64,000 nucleotides of DNA from an uncultured delta proteobacterium (GTDB lineage Bacteria; Desulfobacterota; Desulfuromonadia; Desulfuromonadales; BM103): positions 64,001-128,000 of the forward strand of contig CAVQRZ010000023.1 of the NCBI GenBank assembly GCA_963715335.1, given 5' to 3'. Below, in pieces: positions 51,782 to 59,169 of this stretch (position 1 is its first letter; each line of letters begins with the position of its first letter). The position numbers and the translations under genes are program-made. The notes below the pieces were generated by a model. It was not told the origin of the DNA, searched no databases, and saw only the letters and a list, made by a program, of their open reading frames with translations.

Positions 51782-51818
51782 ATCAGCCAACAAAAAGCCC
51801 CGGGGATTTCCCGGGGCT

Positions 51819-52470
51819 CAGATTGTTGACGAACCCTGCACGTGATGCGGGGTTCGTTTTTTTTTGCCTGTCAGGTGGAGTATTTATGAAGTTTAGGGCA
51901 ACAGATGGTTAATCTGTTGCCCTCGTTCTCTTATTTGAGATCCAAACACAAAAGTTGAAGAACAAAACCGTCGGGGTTGCCCGACAGCAACTTCATTTTC
52001 TTTGTAGCGACAAAGAAAGGAAGCAAAAGAAAGCTTGGCGCTACGCTGGGCATGTCTGGCTCGGCAGGGCGGCGACCTCAATGCAGAACGTTCTAAACGA
52101 TCAAGAGTCTACGCTTCACCCGCAGGAGCCGAGGCTCTTGAGAGCCTCTCCTGCTGTGGAGACTTGCGTTGATAGAGGTTGTTTTGGCTTTTCCCTGGTA
52201 GATCACACGGCAAGGTCAGGCCCTTTGACACAGGGCCGGATCACCATCACAGCGGGTTCTTGAAGTCACAGACATCCGGCAAAGGAGATGCCCTCCGCAA
52301 GGAGAAGGCACTTTTGCATACTTTTGTTGCCGGACAAAAGTATGGCGTCGGGCGGGACGCGACCCGCCGGTTTTGCTTTTAAGCTTTTCAAGAAAAGCAA
52401 AAAGGGCAACAGATTAACCATCTGCTGCCCTCTCTATCATGAATTCAGGTTAAACTTTTACAGCAGCCCC
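51819..52470. mobile_element. Composite repeat/MITE, copy C, at the fumarase terminator
   Basis: Begins CAGATTGTTGACGAA (like copy B) and ends TTTTACAGCAGCCCC. Palindromes at 51895-51923 and 52403-52431 enclose the inverted homologue of copy A. Confidence 0.8.
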
Positions 52471-52546
52471 GCCCCGGGGGTTTCCGGGTGTTTTTAATTT
52501 CATGGCGGCGAAGAGAAGACTATTGAGAGAAGACAAGCTGAGATAC

Positions 52547-54361
52547 CTATCGTCCCTGATAAAACCCGGCCTGGGCATTATAAAGACCGGCATAAGCACC
52601 AGCAAGCCGCAACAGCTCAGCGTGGGTTCCTTTCTCGATAATCATTCCATCATCCATCACATATATCCGATCAGCCAACTGCACTGAAGAAAGACGGTGG
52701 CTGATGATCAGCGCGCTACGTTGACCGATGACATTGCGAAACGAACGGATCATCTCAGCTTCAGCCAGAGGGTCGAGGGAACTGCTCGGTTCATCAAATA
52801 TCATCAGGTCAGCGCTACGGAACCAGGCCCTTGCGAGAGCGAGACGCTGCCACTCACCAATACTGAGCTCCTGACCGGCCTGAAAATGCGTGCCGAGCTG
52901 CGTATCAATGCCATCAGCAAACCGGTTTATGAACTGGTCCGCACCAGCAATTTTTGCCGCAGCAGTCAATTCATCAGCATTTGCTTCCTTCTCTGAATCT
53001 CCCAGCCATATGTTCTCGGAGATTGGCAGATCGAATTGTGCGAAATCCTGGCTCACAACACTCAAATGGCGACGCCATGACCTCGGCAAGAACAATTTCA
53101 GGTCCTTGCCTTCCCAGCTAACCTGTCCTTCATCAGGGTCGTAAAGCCGGCAAATTAATTTTGCCAGGGTTGTCTTTCCTGCTCCATTCACCCCAACCAA
53201 AGCGACTATCTCACCTGGACGTACTTCGAGATTCACATTCTTTAGAGTATGCTCCTTACGACTTGGATAAGTGAATGAGAGATCACGACAGACAAGCCCC
53301 AAGGCTGCCGGCTCCGGCACGAAACTTTGTCCGTTCTCCAGCTCAACCTTTACCGGTAGGTCAATCAAATCATAAAAATGTCTCAAGAACAGGTTGTCCT
53401 CATAGAGCCAACCCAGCCCCTGAAGAACATTCTGCAGAGCTGTCAAGGCTCTCTGATAACCTTGAAAATACATAACGATAACACCAAGAGTCATCGCCCC
53501 CTGGATCGCCACAAAAACCATCGCGGCCAGAGTTCCATATAGTGCGATTGTTGCACCGCCCTGCGCCAGGATGTCGCGCCTGACACGCCTTTTACTGATG
53601 TCGAGGCGCCCCTGACGCAACTTGTCACGCAAATCCCGGTAACGCCCACGGAATAAATCACCGATACCCAGCAGACGGATTTCACGAGCAAAATCAATAC
53701 TGGTCATCATCCAGTGGTAGAACCAGGCTTGCCGTTCGAGTTCAACCCGGTCTCGCTCAAAGGTATAGAGTTGGCGGGCATAGATAAGACGCACCAGCCC
53801 TGCAGGGACAGCGGCCAGAAGGAGAGCCAACCCAACGGCCCAATGAAAGGAGAACAACAGCCCGACGATACCAAAAAGTATCAGGAGGTTCTGCAGAGTC
53901 TGCTTCAACCCATTGACGATGTTGGCCGGACGTGACAAGGCGTCTTGTTGAGCAAGATGGAGGGTATTGTGATATGCAGGGTCTTCATAATAACCGAGAT
54001 CGACTGCAATTGACTTTTCGTGGATAAGGTCTGAGACAAAGTCAGAGACAGCCAGAGATTGTGCTTCCGTGACATATGCAGCGATACTGTTAATTGACGC
54101 AGTCGCCAACGCGACCAGGCCAGCAAGCCCGACCCAGATTAAAACTTGCGTTACCGCACCGTCACCTCTTTCAAGCAATGCGGCACCGAGAGAATCAACT
54201 ATCTGCTTCAGCAGCAACAACGCGAACACCGGCAAAGCCGTCTGTACTATCATCAACAACAGGCTTGCAAGAGTCCAGCGAGGGGTTGCTGCCCAAACCA
54301 GTCGCCAGGCACGGTGCAGATTGAAGATTCCTTTGATTCGCATTTTTATCGAACTATTCAT
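52547..54361 (-). CDS. ABC exporter (TMD + NBD) of the RiPP cassette
   Basis: TM helices; GVNGAGKTT, LSIGEWQR, FDEP and ISHR motifs; no C39 peptidase domain seen. Start uncertain. Confidence 0.92.
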   Translation of the reverse strand: MNSSIKMRIKGIFNLHRAWRLVWAATPRWTLASLLLMIVQTALPVFALLLLKQIVDSLGAALLERGDGAVTQVLIWVGLAGLVALATASINSIAAYVTEAQSLAVSDFVSDLIHEKSIAVDLGYYEDPAYHNTLHLAQQDALSRPANIVNGLKQTLQNLLILFGIVGLLFSFHWAVGLALLLAAVPAGLVRLIYARQLYTFERDRVELERQAWFYHWMMTSIDFAREIRLLGIGDLFRGRYRDLRDKLRQGRLDISKRRVRRDILAQGGATIALYGTLAAMVFVAIQGAMTLGVIVMYFQGYQRALTALQNVLQGLGWLYEDNLFLRHFYDLIDLPVKVELENGQSFVPEPAALGLVCRDLSFTYPSRKEHTLKNVNLEVRPGEIVALVGVNGAGKTTLAKLICRLYDPDEGQVSWEGKDLKLFLPRSWRRHLSVVSQDFAQFDLPISENIWLGDSEKEANADELTAAAKIAGADQFINRFADGIDTQLGTHFQAGQELSIGEWQRLALARAWFRSADLMIFDEPSSSLDPLAEAEMIRSFRNVIGQRSALIISHRLSSVQLADRIYVMDDGMIIEKGTHAELLRLAGAYAGLYNAQAGFYQGR

Positions 54362-54484
54362 AGATCCTATCCACATGGAGTCATTACATTTTTCACCAGA
54401 AACACATAAAAAAAATATGCATACTATAGCATTTAAATCATATATTTGTCGTAACAACCATATTCGACATATAATAGCTGCCTT

Positions 54485-55372
54485 ATGTCTGATCGTGACA
54501 AAATATACGGGCAAGAACTTGCTATTGGCCCCCTCATCTACCACCTCTATGCGATTGATGAATGGGGCGCAAGTATTCTTCATGGAATCAGCACACATCT
54601 TGCCTGTAATGAAATTTCGAGAACGGCTGATCGAATAATATTATTGTTTCATAATGAGCCGGCAGCCTTTACTTCGAAAAAAGTTCCCGCCGCTTTTTCA
54701 ACCTGTGAAGTTGAAGAAGATTCGTGGTATTTCCGCAAAAACCTGATTGACACGACCTGGCAATCGGATCAATCAACCTGCACCTTCTGGTCAGCAGGGG
54801 TTGACACGTTAATCGGGCCCGTTCGTTTTCATCTTCCATGGAGCCTTGTTGTTGATGATCTTGTTGCACGGGGGGGAGGACTGATCCACGCCGGGCTGGC
54901 CGACCACGGAGGCTCCGGATATCTGTTTGCTGCCCCGCCAAGCGGCGGTAAGAGCACAACATTGGCAACAGCCCCAGCCGAGTGGATGATTATGAGTGAT
55001 GACGCTGCTCTCGTCTGGCCAGACGAAAATGGCTGGCTGGCCAGTCCCCTGCCATCCTGGGGAGACCAACTCAAGCCTGACGAGCCCTGGCCCTGGCCAC
55101 AGATGGCGCTTGACTCGACTTGCGCTCTGAGCAACATTTTGCAGCTTGATAAAGGCGCCCATGTCGAACTCGCCAGGCTGAAAGAGTCAGCGGCCCTCCC
55201 CTTTATCTACCAGGCTTTAAGTGAGTATCCCGTCATTATTCTGGCAAACATCAGTTATAGAGAAGAATACTTCCGTAGCGCAGCGCAAATGGCCCGCGTT
55301 CTCTCAACATGGCAGCTTACCCTGCCGAAGCATGGCGACATCTGGCACCTGCTCCAGCAGAGAACCAAATGA
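54485..55372 (+). CDS. scmC: HPr-kinase-like P-loop protein, ScmC-like
   Basis: IHAG, AAPPSGGKST and SDD motifs; adjacent to ScmD/E/F-like genes. Confidence 0.72.
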   Translation: MSDRDKIYGQELAIGPLIYHLYAIDEWGASILHGISTHLACNEISRTADRIILLFHNEPAAFTSKKVPAAFSTCEVEEDSWYFRKNLIDTTWQSDQSTCTFWSAGVDTLIGPVRFHLPWSLVVDDLVARGGGLIHAGLADHGGSGYLFAAPPSGGKSTTLATAPAEWMIMSDDAALVWPDENGWLASPLPSWGDQLKPDEPWPWPQMALDSTCALSNILQLDKGAHVELARLKESAALPFIYQALSEYPVIILANISYREEYFRSAAQMARVLSTWQLTLPKHGDIWHLLQQRTK

Positions 55373-56010
55373 ACACACTAACCAACACCTTCATATACAA
55401 AGGCAGAAGCATGTGGCCATGTTTTCAGGAAGGCGACCTCCTGGTGCTGGCTGACATCGAATTCAACCAGATTCGTGCAGGCGATTGCATAGCGTACCAG
55501 AGGACCAGCGGCAGAAAAGCGGTGCACCGTGTAGTTGCGCTTCAAAGCTCACTTATCACACGCGGCGATTCTTTACCTTGCGTTGACACTGAATCGGTCA
55601 AATCGGAGCAGGTTATAGGGCGGGTTGTGAGTTTTTATCGCTTCGGCAGGCGGCATCAAGTTGTCGGAGGGTTCATAGGCAGGATTGTGGGTCTGTTCTA
55701 CCGATATGCAGGCCGTATCGATCCGCAAAGACAGGCGCGAGGCGGCTGGCTAGCGCGCAAAATCCGCTTTTTCAGCATGGCGATACTGAAAACAATTCAA
55801 TGTGATGGGAAAGCTGAGAGGCTTAAACTTGATGGGGCAGATGAATTGAAGGTGTGGACTATAGCCGGGAGGGTTATCGGACAACAGGATCAGGACTCAA
55901 GGCAATGGAAGATTGCCTGGCCATGGATGTTTTTGTTGAAATCAGGGAGACTTTTAAGATGGGGCAGAGGTCTTATTTTTCGCCGTTACCTACAGAACAG
56001 TAAACACTAG
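55369..56010 (+). CDS. S24/S26-family peptidase (Ser-His type)
   Basis: GRSMWP, GD, VHRV and TRGD motifs; ATGA-coupled to the upstream gene. Confidence 0.78.
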   Translation: MNTLTNTFIYKGRSMWPCFQEGDLLVLADIEFNQIRAGDCIAYQRTSGRKAVHRVVALQSSLITRGDSLPCVDTESVKSEQVIGRVVSFYRFGRRHQVVGGFIGRIVGLFYRYAGRIDPQRQARGGWLARKIRFFSMAILKTIQCDGKAERLKLDGADELKVWTIAGRVIGQQDQDSRQWKIAWPWMFLLKSGRLLRWGRGLIFRRYLQNSKH

Positions 56011-56179
56011 CTCCATTGCCACGCGTACAGTTACCCTGGTTTGACGCCCCTGACCCAGATGCGCATTGGGTTGGACCGCCAGGCGTGGGCGTAGTACCAG
56101 TCGCGCATTCACCGAAAATCGGCTGACATGAGTCAACAGACCTGACCATCGGCTCTTTCCATAAACGCTTATTACTCAT
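55973..56179 (-). CDS. Putative RiPP precursor peptide with CxxG repeats
   Basis: 68 aa with WKEP leader motif and four CxxG units; GAGGGG RBS; dedicated promoter. Confidence 0.82.
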   Translation of the reverse strand: MSNKRLWKEPMVRSVDSCQPIFGECATGTTPTPGGPTQCASGSGASNQGNCTRGNGASVYCSVGNGEK

Positions 56180-56209
56180 ACAACAGCCCCCTCAAAAATG
56201 ATTTCCGCG

Positions 56210-56238
56210 ATTATAGCCCTATCCGGGTATCTTGCCAA
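56210..56238 (-). promoter_or_regulatory. Sigma70 promoter for the precursor gene
   Basis: TTGGCA (56238-56233), 17-nt spacer, TATAAT (56215-56210). Confidence 0.75.
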
Positions 56239-56282
56239 CCCCCAGATTATGTAGCCAATCTGCAAGATGAGCCTCGACACCT

Positions 56283-57356
56283 TTAGCCTCTGCGCCTCTT
56301 TAACGGGAACAACCCTTGTTCAGCGGCTTGTTGACAGAACCAGTATGGTGCCAGCAGGTCACCGGAGAGCTGATAATTGGAGGCGACACAACTACCAAGG
56401 CAGTTTTCCTGCATCAAACAATCACGGCAAATCCCCTGAAGACTCTTCGGCAAGCCTTCCCTCAGGCCCATAAGCACCTGGTGGCTCTGCCAAATCTCCT
56501 TGAGCTTTACTGACATGACAGCACCCATCGACAGTTCCGGAACATGTTGACCAACACCACACAACGAGTAGGCCCCTGAGGGCAGGATGCCGAGCACGTG
56601 CATGATGTTACAGACCCCGTCATCCTCCCCGGAGATTATGCGTGAGAGAGGTCGGAAAGCATGTGGAACGCCCATTTGAATGGGGAGGCTGAACTGCTGT
56701 GACCACTTCTCAGAAACTTTTGCAGATATATCCAGGATCTCCTTGATACTCAAGGCATCTCCTTCATTAGAGAGGGTCTCAGCTCTCAGGACCGGTTGCA
56801 GCACGTTCAGTTTGACTGCGCCAGCGCCCAACCCCTCAGCCAGGGCAAAAAAATCAGGCAGTTGTCTTTTGTTCGATTGTTGCAAGGTCAAAATCAATTC
56901 AGGACGGAAACCCGCGCCAACCAATGCGCGAATCCCCATAATGGTTTTTTTAAAACCACTTTTGACGCAGCGAATCGCATCGTGGGTCCTGTCATTTGCT
57001 CCATCCAGGCTCACGGACACCCTGCTCACTCCGCTGTCCCGCATCAAGCTTGCCAGTTCATCATTAACCAACATACCGTTAGTCTCGACAATCGCCTCTA
57101 GATTGTATTCTCTCTGCAAATCAAGAAGCTCACGGAAACACGGATGCAGTGTCGGTTCCCCGCCAGTCCACTTGATGGCAGAAAGACCCAACGGGAGAGC
57201 CTGTTCGATGGCATGCCTCAATATTCGCGGCTCAAGGACAACTTGCTCATCCTGCTTTTGACGTTCCGGCACGAACCAGCAATGCCGACAAGCACAGTTA
57301 CAACCACTGGTCAGGTAAGCATAGAAGGTATTCAATGTCGGCACAGTCACGGCCAT
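56283..57356 (-). CDS. scmF: Radical SAM/SPASM protein, ScmF-like
   Basis: YLTSGCNCACRHCW, TGGEP and C-terminal CxxCxxxxxCxxxC motifs. Confidence 0.85.
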   Translation of the reverse strand: MAVTVPTLNTFYAYLTSGCNCACRHCWFVPERQKQDEQVVLEPRILRHAIEQALPLGLSAIKWTGGEPTLHPCFRELLDLQREYNLEAIVETNGMLVNDELASLMRDSGVSRVSVSLDGANDRTHDAIRCVKSGFKKTIMGIRALVGAGFRPELILTLQQSNKRQLPDFFALAEGLGAGAVKLNVLQPVLRAETLSNEGDALSIKEILDISAKVSEKWSQQFSLPIQMGVPHAFRPLSRIISGEDDGVCNIMHVLGILPSGAYSLCGVGQHVPELSMGAVMSVKLKEIWQSHQVLMGLREGLPKSLQGICRDCLMQENCLGSCVASNYQLSGDLLAPYWFCQQAAEQGLFPLKRRRG

Positions 57357-58456
57357 AACGATAGCCCCTCTGCTGCAAGTTTCTCCTGAAATCGTTTGAG
57401 ACAGGTCGACGGGCATGGCTGGTCAACTTTCCCGGTCGCTGTAAACGCCGTACCGGGACAGTTCCCGGTACAACTTGACTGCCATTCACACAGACGACAT
57501 TCGTCAAACTCTTCAAGCGCAATTTCCCACCGTTCACGCAACCGGCATAATGACTCGGCATTCTGCCAGACCTCAACCAGTGGAGTCTCTCCGACCTTGC
57601 CGAGGACCATGTGCGGCAGCATGACACAGGGGATATAAGCACCATCTGAACGAACCGCAAGGCTGTCGTAAATACAGCCACAACCGACCAGACGTCCCCG
57701 ACCCGGCACAGGAGTCCCAGACCGTCGTGCCTCCTCCATTTCACTGAACATACGCCAGTCCGCCAGAGGCCCTGCATTTGCGCGAATCCGCCCCGGATAT
57801 TGTTTGTCAAGGTTCGCCATGATTTTTATCGCTTTTAAATGCTCTCTGGTGTTAAGCAAAACACCCGTGCCGTATTTTGTCGAAGTCCCGAGCGAGGAAG
57901 CGGCATTGGTACTGAAAGAAGGGAGCCTCAGTTCTGTCAGCAATAGTCGTGCGATTTTCGGAAGGTCATCTATATTGCCGGGATGGATGGTCACTCTGAC
58001 TGTTACTGGCAGTTTGGTACTCTGCAAAGCTCTGATTCCTGATAACGCCGGCTCAAATGTTCCCTTACCGCGAAGACTTTCATGAATTTCTGCTGTCGAG
58101 CCATCCAGTGACACCTGGACCATGTCACACCGGCCTGTCTGCTGCAGGTGAACAGCAATTTGCGAGGTCAGGAAACTGCCGTTGGTCAACACGGAAAAAC
58201 GCATGCGATTGGCAACAATCCCGTCAACCAAGTCTAAAAAATCATCCCTGATCAACGGTTCACCACCCTGCAGGGTTACATTCATCACCTGGCAGTTTGC
58301 CAGTTCCTCGAAAAAGGTTAACCAGAATTCAGTAGGCAGGTCGGCGTAGATTACATCAGGGTTGTTAAGATAGTAACAATAGCTGCAGTTCGCGTTGCAG
58401 CGGCTGGTAATTTCAAGATCCAGAGAGCGTGGAGTACGCATCACTTGCGGAGACAT
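57347..58456 (-). CDS. scmE: Radical SAM/SPASM protein, ScmE-like
   Basis: MRTPRSLDLEITSRCNANCSYC, GGEP, GCGC and CRLCEWQSSCTGNCP motifs. Confidence 0.87.
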   Translation of the reverse strand: MSPQVMRTPRSLDLEITSRCNANCSYCYYLNNPDVIYADLPTEFWLTFFEELANCQVMNVTLQGGEPLIRDDFLDLVDGIVANRMRFSVLTNGSFLTSQIAVHLQQTGRCDMVQVSLDGSTAEIHESLRGKGTFEPALSGIRALQSTKLPVTVRVTIHPGNIDDLPKIARLLLTELRLPSFSTNAASSLGTSTKYGTGVLLNTREHLKAIKIMANLDKQYPGRIRANAGPLADWRMFSEMEEARRSGTPVPGRGRLVGCGCIYDSLAVRSDGAYIPCVMLPHMVLGKVGETPLVEVWQNAESLCRLRERWEIALEEFDECRLCEWQSSCTGNCPGTAFTATGKVDQPCPSTCLKRFQEKLAAEGLSLWP

Positions 58457-58761
58457 TAATCCTGCTCCCAAACCCCTACAGCACCGAGGATTGCTAATGT
58501 CTCCATTAAACCAATGACCTGCTGGGCCGTCGAGTCATCAATGCCCTCGTATCTGTTCCTTAGGCAATCAACAACTTCACCCAGGCTACGTTTTCCATCC
58601 AGCAACTTCCATACGTCAACCGCCGTGCTGTTGAGCATCTGCACCTTTCCATTATCAGGGTCAAACAACAGCGCGCAATCATCGTCTTCGATGCGCAGAA
58701 CGAGACCTGGATTGACCGCCAGGCGACTGTCCATATCGATTTTCAATTCGTTGTTATCCAA
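58456..58761 (-). CDS. scmD: PqqD-family RRE protein, ScmD-like
   Basis: NPGLVLRIEDDDCALLFDPD...LNSTAVDVWKLLDG; TAATG-coupled to the ScmE-like gene. Confidence 0.85.
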   Translation of the reverse strand: MDNNELKIDMDSRLAVNPGLVLRIEDDDCALLFDPDNGKVQMLNSTAVDVWKLLDGKRSLGEVVDCLRNRYEGIDDSTAQQVIGLMETLAILGAVGVWEQD

Positions 58762-58782
58762 AGGAATCCTTAATAGAAGAGA

Positions 58783-59070
58783 CTATTCTATTGGCAGCTT
58801 TACAACGAGACCGTGACGTAGAGCGAAACCAAGGATGGATCGAGTCTGTCGTTCAGCATCAGCCCGGTTGAGGTCAAAGTTCTGCAACAGGAAATTCAAA
58901 CAATCACTACGGTTAAAAAATCGTCCTTCAGGCAGCAACGACGCCTGCTCGAAGAGCGCCGCGGCAGCGTGATTGACAGTAACCATCACATCCCGATTAG
59001 CAATCAGCATAACTGCATCCTCGTCAAAAAATTCAATGAAAACATGAGGAGAGAGTTGGTAGCAATCCAC
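58783..59070 (-). CDS. Second, divergent PqqD-like protein
   Basis: 95 aa with LSPHVFIEFFDEDAVML...VNHAA...GLV pattern typical of the PqqD fold. Confidence 0.65.
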   Translation of the reverse strand: MDCYQLSPHVFIEFFDEDAVMLIANRDVMVTVNHAAAALFEQASLLPEGRFFNRSDCLNFLLQNFDLNRADAERQTRSILGFALRHGLVVKLPIE

Positions 59071-59169
59071 CAGGCGTACACCTTTCGAATATGATCCTTC
59101 ATGTTAGTTGTTTTACAAGTGGACTGTCAAATAAACGGAGGGATGAAATCATTCACCGCCAGAGAATGA

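Follow-up and report, generated by a model that had tools for sequence, protein, structure and literature searches.

Does the cluster of eight genes at positions 52547–59070 of this stretch specify a complete pathway for a modified peptide, and if it does, on which peptide do its two radical S-adenosylmethionine (SAM) enzymes act? The stretch, hereafter the window, comprises 64,000 nucleotides of contig CAVQRZ010000023.1 from assembly GCA_963715335.1 of an uncultured delta proteobacterium. A first-pass annotation made from the letters alone had proposed recognition, two radical modifications, possible phosphorylation, leader cleavage, and export of a ribosomally made peptide that is modified after translation (RiPP), and had likened four of the proteins to the ScmC, ScmD, ScmE, and ScmF families of the SynChlorMet system. 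All eight claimed genes are present as open reading frames (ORFs) within 52547–59070, with backing from family scans, fold predictions, or synteny, and the genes for ScmD, ScmE, ScmF, ScmC, and a small precursor are neighbors. We conclude that the locus is probably a working RiPP cassette, a divergent form of SynChlorMet with a pathway of six steps, and that a small Cys-rich ORF of 68 aa very likely encodes its substrate. The eight proteins were scanned against NCBIfam/TIGRFAM and Pfam, with hits reported at E ≤ 0.01. The five roles defined for SynChlorMet in NCBIfam (ScmA TIGR04252, ScmC TIGR04249, ScmD TIGR04248, ScmE TIGR04250, and ScmF TIGR04251) are all represented in the locus. The likeness to ScmC, ScmD, ScmE, and ScmF held in that each protein matches its own model best, but only ScmE scores above the curated cut-off.

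The radical SAM enzymes are encoded on the minus strand by ScmE (57347–58471, with a likely ATG at 58456 that overlaps the ScmD stop codon by 1 nt) and ScmF (56283–57416, with a start possibly at 57356). ScmE passes TIGR04250 with 447.2 bits versus a cut-off of 400 (446.8 bits in a six-frame search of the genome), and ScmF reaches 382.4 bits with TIGR04251, below the cut-off of 400, over model positions 3–352 of 353. The first-pass annotation had named a best match to cofactor-biosynthesis families as the result that would speak against a peptide-modifying role. Instead, both enzymes match the ScmE and ScmF models best (447 and 382 bits), and the cofactor families are far lower, with scores for ScmE and ScmF, respectively, of 111 and 143 bits for AhbD, 104 and 80 bits for PqqE, and at most 97 and 103 bits for NirJ-type models; because of this wide gap, the objection falls away. 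The runner-up family for ScmF in NCBIfam is AhbD, at 142.8 bits. Pattern searches confirmed the CxxxCxxC motif and the C-terminal seven-Cys SPASM pattern in both proteins: CNANCSYC, Cx11Gx4C, and CxxCx5Cx3C in ScmE, and CNCACRHC together with the full SPASM pattern, including Cx11Gx4C and CxxCx5Cx3C, in ScmF. The Pfam domains Radical_SAM (79 and 82 bits) and SPASM (27.6 and 22.6 bits) are above cut-off in both. The nearest solved sequence to ScmE is the sactisynthase SkfB (E 8e-18), over the radical SAM core only. Neither enzyme has a peptide-binding domain of its own.

Two leader-binding proteins had been proposed as PqqD-like, and this was borne out in full for one of them. ScmD (58456–58761, minus strand, 101 aa) is a PqqD-family peptide chaperone, that is, a RiPP recognition element (RRE); it passes Pfam PqqD with 48.8 bits and matches TIGR04248 best with 64.5 bits, below that model's cut-off of 100. 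The upstream 95-aa protein, which we call PqqDx (58783–59070, minus strand), passes no family cut-off but has a predicted RRE fold. It has no Pfam or NCBIfam hit at the reporting threshold, scores 12.7 bits with Pfam PqqD versus a cut-off of 23.4, and aligns weakly with ScmD in hhalign (E 0.048, colinear over 87 columns). Its AlphaFold model (predicted local distance difference test, pLDDT, 87.6) has three strands (residues 10–15, 18–23, and 28–32) followed by three helices (34–44, 54–64, and 69–85). The best fold match of the model is the leader-bound lasso-peptide RRE TbiB1 (5v1v; E 1.1e-5, template modeling score, TM, 0.72/0.77), followed by another leader-bound lasso B1 protein and then by PqqD (5sxy, TM 0.67). 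There are 26 homologs of PqqDx, unnamed and without a Pfam domain, at 55–100% identity. A predicted complex of PqqDx, ScmD, and the 68-aa precursor scored 0.40 (runs 0.34, 0.40, and 0.42), versus 0.10 for the best of three controls, the one in which ScmD was replaced, with an agreement between runs of at least 38% of contacts and a partner pLDDT of at least 37. This score is weak, and we do not count it as evidence. Among 157 solved complexes 116 attain the mark, and among 215 mismatched pairs 2 do so, but at scores of 0.60 or lower only 18 of the 157 solved complexes reach it, together with both of the passing mismatches, and because RRE-leader complexes have already been solved, the pass may reflect likeness to solved structures.

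The candidate substrate is encoded at 55973–56179 on the minus strand, directly after ScmF. It has the 68 aa and five Cys residues of the small Cys-rich ORF noted in the first-pass annotation, and we regard it as a divergent ScmA. A Shine-Dalgarno sequence, GAGGGGG, lies 8 nt before its ATG. Upstream is a sigma-70-like promoter at 56210–56238 (minus strand; TTGGCA, 17-nt spacer, TATAAT; 11/12), which is the best promoter-like match of the region in a consensus scan. Its hexamers and 17-nt spacing are retained in the related loci L063 and L061 (with TATGAT as the −10 element in L061), and in L061 the sequence of the spacer has diverged. The peptide is 61.5% identical to its counterpart in L061 (E 3e-25), 77% identical to that in L063, and 79% and 71% identical to two protein clusters. 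In an alignment of these five sequences, all five Cys residues, W7, E9, P10, and V12 of the leader (W7-x-E9-P10-x-V12), and the segment C-Q-P-(I/V)-F-G-E-C are invariant. Four of the five Cys residues begin a C-x-x-G unit and three begin C-x-x-G-x-x-(A/P). Codon by codon, the ORF has 32 identical, 19 synonymous, and 17 nonsynonymous positions relative to L063 (19/36 changes synonymous) and 19, 22, and 27, respectively, relative to L061 (22/49 changes synonymous); the flanks of the ORF have diverged among the relatives, and the coding part has been retained. The placement directly after ScmF is the same in L061 and L063, as it is for the small ORFs of several distant cassettes. When a unit pattern drawn from the family logo was run against the 74,992 ORFs of the genome, the 68-aa ORF was the sole match, and shuffled controls gave 0, 1, and 0 matches. 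Taken together, position, conservation, promoter, and pattern make it very likely, as far as sequence comparison can tell, that this peptide is the substrate. The window's peptide (55976–56179) is absent from a collection of 5.8 billion proteins, in which only two clusters of relatives are found, so public annotation has apparently not called the gene. The curated ScmA model overlooks divergent precursors of this kind, and routine gene calling seems to overlook them as well.

A (Y/W/F)-x-x-P-x-(L/V/I) leader followed by Cys/Gly-rich repeats characterizes small ORFs found beside 12 of 20 related cassettes that we fetched, and also in 4 of 8 short loci from an ScmE-like group with lower scores. 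Across 16 such peptides with 91 Cys units, Gly occupies position +3 in 82 of the 91 units and Ala or Pro position +6 in 61, and the Cys-to-Cys spacing is 10–11 in 55 of 75 intervals; beyond the Gly at +3 and the Ala/Pro at +6, no residue that might act as an acceptor is conserved in the units. The number of Cys residues ranges from 3 (L041) to 13 (L056) among the peptides collected. TIGR04252 scores the relatives' peptides at 28.7, 24.2, and about 15 bits, all under its cut-off of 35 bits, and two have no hit. At L044 (1060–1684 and 9708–10193), the precursor core includes a long Gly-Thr run encoded by (GT)n, a repeat that may destabilize the length of the core, and a second, apparently frame-shifted precursor copy lies about 8 kb away.

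To place the cassette among its relatives, a sample of 401 genomes from the phylum, the window's own included, was searched for ScmE. It was found above cut-off in 22 genomes and as a match at E ≤ 1e-60 in 34, and the 13 sampled genomes of the window's order or class gave no ScmE match at E ≤ 1e-60. The window's ScmE is the weakest among the sampled proteins above cut-off and is only 44–52% identical to 20 model-passing relatives. When the 20 fetched ScmE loci were searched by BLASTP with the window proteins, ScmD was detected in 18, ScmF in 14, an S26-like peptidase in 10, ScmC in 8, and the ABC exporter (E < 1e-30) in 6, with a gene for a Cys-repeat peptide in 12; these counts are lower bounds, because at least 7 of the 20 loci run into a contig end. 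Neither PqqDx nor the 68-aa peptide, used as a BLASTP query on the 20 distant loci, gave a match at 1e-3. The set of ScmD, ScmE, ScmF, ScmC, and precursor is present in L037, L039, L041, L044, L046, L048, L049, and L053, so the synteny check suggested in the first-pass annotation came out in favor of a recurring gene set. The closest relative is L061, from a Desulfuromonadales metagenome-assembled genome, with a ScmE 72% identical to that of the window and a gene order that matches the window's: ScmE, ScmF, small ORF, inverted S26-ScmC, ABC, and class I fumarate hydratase. Three sediment-metagenome contigs (L062, L064, and L065) encode ScmE at 83–85% identity together with PqqDx (75–76%) and ScmD (81–84%), and the genes upstream in L062 match those of the window: miaA, hfq, a DUF512-like gene, a TPR gene, and LrgAB. 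L063 has the small ORF followed by a convergent S26 gene. Among the fetched relatives, no single contig covers both PqqDx and the precursor. The closest relatives have exactly the architecture of the window's cassette, down to the inverted ScmC-S26 pair and the two flanks. Overlapping stop and start codons, as first described, are present at ScmD/ScmE, ScmE/ScmF, and ScmC/S26 (ATGA), and the eight genes do stand together at the locus, but they do not form one co-directional operon, as ScmC and the S26 gene are on the plus strand and the other six are on the minus strand. The S26 gene and the 68-aa ORF have convergent 3′ ends that overlap by 38 nt.

The P-loop kinase-like protein of the first-pass annotation is ScmC (54485–55372, plus strand), which has a P-loop and an HprK/PEPCK-like predicted fold. 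Its best family match is TIGR04249, at 67.5 bits versus a cut-off of 125, over model positions 56–288 of 292, and it matches HprK_rel_A at E 1e-4. Pfam Hpr_kinase_C gave no hit to the window's ScmC, and the L048 protein scores 17.1 bits with it versus a cut-off of 33.3. The structural model (pLDDT 77.3, predicted TM 0.79) was compared with solved chains in VIA-align, which gave Z 13.3 and 11.4 against PEPCK over the full length and Z 9.9–10.9 for residues 130–295 against four HprK/P chains (for 1jb1, a root-mean-square deviation of 3.2 over 120 residues). These Z values are to be read against an unrelated chain that reached Z 11.4, a third PEPCK at Z 6.7, and a next row at 5.3. In Foldseek, the best 50 matches are all PEPCK entries, and HprK/P appears only in a representative-based search. 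At E 6.7e-4, a profile of the ScmC family aligns with Lactobacillus casei HprK/P (1jb1) and brings the His, GxGKS/T loop, and DD pair into register, and H135, G155, K156, T158, D172, and D173 are invariant in nine sequences. The model and these residues suggest that ScmC is likely a kinase or phosphotransferase of the HprK/PEPCK fold. At L044, the peptidase and ScmC form a single 528-aa fusion protein.

The S26-like peptidase (55309 or 55369–56010, plus strand), correctly recognized in the first-pass annotation, passes TIGR02228 with 52.9 bits versus 51.85. It aligns with human SEC11C (7p2q, E 0.0047) across GxSMxP and VHRV, and in a 12-sequence alignment M15, P17, H53, R54, G66, D67, and D73 are invariant and S14 is nearly so. 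Only 11 residues precede the Ser motif, and there is no N-terminal anchor: the maximum Kyte-Doolittle hydrophobicity in 19-residue windows is 0.92, and no window exceeds 1.6. Because it has no hydrophobic segment, the peptidase should act in the cytoplasm, and from its sequence it is likely a soluble SEC11/SipW-like Ser-His leader peptidase. At L051 (8196–9740), an S26-like peptidase is fused to an NTP_transf_5 domain (Pfam E 1.9e-45), in a cassette that also has two precursor genes and two ScmD-like genes. The exporter (52547–54598, minus strand) is a fused ABC permease and ATPase, in keeping with its first description, and scores 109 bits with Pfam ABC_tran and 269 bits, below cut-off, with an MsbA-type model; it has 57 hydrophobic windows and no peptidase domain. 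Its true start is probably at 54358 (52547–54358, 603 aa), because its relatives have 604–607 aa; it is 74% identical to the L061 exporter and 41–45% identical to those of L044, L048, and L053.

These components can be arranged into a tentative pathway. The 68-aa gene, transcribed from its own strong promoter, would supply the substrate, and ScmD would hold the W-x-E-P-x-V leader as PqqD holds PqqA; the clade-specific PqqDx may serve the other enzyme or the CQPIFGEC segment. ScmE and ScmF would then act on the repeated C-x-x-G-x-x-(A/P) units, the leading possibility being one radical thioether for each Cys unit, which may run to the invariant +3 Gly; the second enzyme would add a second type of link or another change. 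ScmC would use ATP on the peptide, the simplest case being phosphorylation of Ser or Thr; the SEC11-type Ser-His peptidase, which has no membrane anchor, would trim the leader in the cytoplasm; and the ABC transporter would export the product.

Several observations weigh against this reading of the locus. Of the five curated Scm models, the window passes that of ScmE alone. The ScmA model TIGR04252 gives no hit to the 68-aa ORF at E ≤ 10 and did not find it in a six-frame search of the whole genome, and a leave-one-out profile, built without the window's peptide, ranks it only fifth of the 74,992 ORFs (E 1.1), so a link to the wider ScmA-like family does not follow from sequence statistics alone. 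The unit pattern that singles it out was chosen after the peptides had been seen. The window clade lacks the small-x-small motif that its relatives carry before the first unit; a leader cleavage site of that form (AQA and AYA in relatives) was considered and dropped, and because of the missing motif we claim no cleavage site. The invariant Gly could have a structural role and not accept a cross-link, ScmC could be a noncatalytic scaffold or could assist the peptidase as a partner driven by ATP, and the genome is a metagenome bin with an estimated contamination of 6.87%. The misses by the curated model and the leave-one-out profile, together with the apparent absence of the gene from public annotation, would also fit a locus in which the target of the enzymes, a peptide or a protein, is encoded at another place and the small ORF serves an unrelated or regulatory function. 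We consider this highly improbable, since the position after ScmF is kept in L061, L063, and several distant cassettes, the promoter is conserved, the unit pattern is unique in the genome, and no other ORF scores with the family profile (best other E 0.23–0.24).

If the 68-aa peptide is the substrate, what the two enzymes do to it is a separate matter, and that ScmE or ScmF forms a thioether of any kind has, judged from the sequences, somewhat less than an even chance. The enzymes might instead catalyze epimerization, carbon-carbon or ether links, or Cys oxidation as sulfatase maturases do, with the Cys residues serving in disulfides or as metal ligands. The next named families after ScmE and ScmF (WgkB, AhbD, MftC, PqqE, and anSME) span several chemistries, the solved relatives (SkfB, PqqE, and BlsE) align over the radical SAM core only, which also counts against the pathway set out above, and Gly and Ala/Pro are the only conserved acceptor candidates. 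Thioether formation is favored instead by ScmE having a sactisynthase as its best solved match and by the strict periodicity of one Cys per unit, which resembles that of PapA-type substrates, periodic in Cys and modified with thioethers at multiple sites. A SPASM enzyme that installs ranthionines on a Cys-rich substrate (CrpC/CrpA) is also described in a 2026 report (PMC13692751). We judge modification of the precursor by chemistry other than thioether formation unlikely. A product retained in the cell, as a redox cofactor or an enzyme-bound prosthetic peptide like pyrroloquinoline quinone (PQQ) or mycofactocin, would suit enzymes from the PqqE/MftC/AhbD-like part of the SPASM family (about 80–143 bits) and a separate PqqD-type chaperone as in PQQ synthesis. 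Such a product is very improbable given the dedicated ABC exporter, which recurs in relatives, a core of variable unit number (3 to 13 Cys) and no fixed motif, and a locus with no partner oxidoreductase. An exported, modified peptide from a SynChlorMet-type cassette is the reading that we retain.

Comparison with known systems gives this reading its outline. The window shares with model-passing SynChlorMet cassettes the leader and Cys-unit plan of the precursor, the S26 peptidase, and the ABC exporter. It differs from them in the extra RRE-fold gene PqqDx, in a leader Trp where relatives have Tyr, in a CQPIFGEC segment where relatives have GG(V/I)AYA, in having only four CxxG units, and in the inversion of the ScmC-S26 pair relative to the other genes. 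By sequence, then, the window's clade is distinguished by PqqDx, by a W-x-E-P leader with CQPIFGEC, by a short four-unit core, and by an inverted ScmC-S26 module. PQQ biosynthesis likewise uses a small precursor, a stand-alone PqqD chaperone, and a radical SAM/SPASM enzyme without a fused RRE, but the PqqE models stay at 104 and 80 bits, well under a cut-off of 381, and the window has two radical SAM enzymes, a repeat core, a peptidase, and an exporter, with no pqqB or pqqC. With sactipeptides and ranthipeptides, the locus has in common a Cys-rich substrate, short Cys motifs that recur along it, and a SPASM enzyme carrying two auxiliary clusters; however, the thioether-enzyme models score far below their cut-offs (PapB 85/340, StsB 91/625, and SkfB 72/300 bits), and the unit C-x-x-G-x-x-(A/P) has no conserved Asp, Asn, or Thr acceptor. 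The PapB/freyrasin system has six CxxxD units.

Paeninodin-type lasso systems offer a further parallel. PMC10368454 gives the lasso leader motif as YxxPxL, which the Scm leader (Y/W)-x-x-P-x-(L/V) resembles, a resemblance only, and according to PMC8498205, HPr-kinase homologs phosphorylate lasso-peptide precursors. The predicted fold of PqqDx is nearest to the lasso B1 protein TbiB1, the HprK-fold ScmC is present, and we count the peptidase-NTP_transf_5 fusion at L051 as a likeness to phosphorylated lasso systems. Unlike lasso systems, the eight genes encode, in the NCBIfam and Pfam scans, no Asn-synthetase-like cyclase and no transglutaminase-like B2 protease; no C-terminal Ser is conserved, and the modifying enzymes are radical SAM proteins. 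A bolder proposal is that Scm is an undescribed RiPP class in which each C-x-x-G unit carries a small ring made by a radical Cys-to-Gly (alpha-carbon) thioether, the second radical SAM enzyme and the HPr-kinase-fold protein make further changes, and a cytoplasmic SEC11-type protease removes a lasso-like leader, the window representing a subclass that pairs a second leader-binding protein with CQPIFGEC; we regard this as doubtful in its full extent. Elsewhere, SEC11-type proteases are not known to serve as RiPP leader peptidases.

The existence of the curated precursor family ScmA (TIGR04252) means that the cassette as such has already been catalogued; its type has stood in databases for years. 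The first-pass annotation took the Scm families to lack a characterized product, and none was found in the literature searched: no paper turned up on SynChlorMet or TIGR04248–TIGR04252 in a search outside which most subscription journals lay, and because it covered so few of them, a characterization may have appeared elsewhere. A search on SPASM together with the host genera returned nothing relevant, and a 2021 SPASM review does not include Scm. Scm cassettes are fairly common in anaerobes, to judge by the 22 of 401 sampled genomes with ScmE above cut-off, and the searched literature gave no paper on their product. The locus is a compact test case, with a 68-aa precursor of four units, all of the accessory genes, and close relatives, and it bears on how two SPASM enzymes act on a C-x-x-G repeat, on the role of an HPr-kinase fold, and on a soluble SEC11-type leader peptidase.

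Other features of the locus are minor. Three further promoter-like sites are weak: one at 59101–59130 on the minus strand (TTGACA, 18-nt spacer, TAACAT; 10/12), which precedes the first gene by about 30 nt, and two divergent sites within 54423–54475, between the ABC gene on the minus strand and ScmC on the plus strand, one 5′ of ScmC (plus strand; TTGTCG, 18-nt spacer, TATAAT; 10/12) and the other 5′ of the ABC gene (minus strand; ACGACA, 18-nt spacer, TATAGT with TG; 9/12). The consensus scan found 8 promoter-like sites in the region versus 5.9 expected from shuffles. Scans of the locus with Rfam models and for tRNA genes gave nothing above threshold. The GC content of the cassette (0.48–0.53) is slightly under that of the flanks (0.55–0.59), a difference too weak to serve as an argument for transfer. 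Just 3′ of the fumarate hydratase gene, at 51795–51858, are two back-to-back GC-rich hairpins with T runs that have only sub-threshold Rfam matches (anti-hemB, 25.8 bits versus a gathering score of 49.5) and are likely a bidirectional terminator. The gap of about 690 bp between the fumarate hydratase and ABC genes (51860–52546) contains a repeat element that has terminal inverted repeats of 57 nt (51882–51938 and 52388–52444, 75% complementary), which is missing from the corresponding site in L061, where the gap is 180 bp. With 54 BLASTN hits of at least 350 bp on 22 contigs of the genome, its own hit included, at 76–95% identity, the element looks like a nonautonomous mobile element of the miniature inverted-repeat transposable element type.

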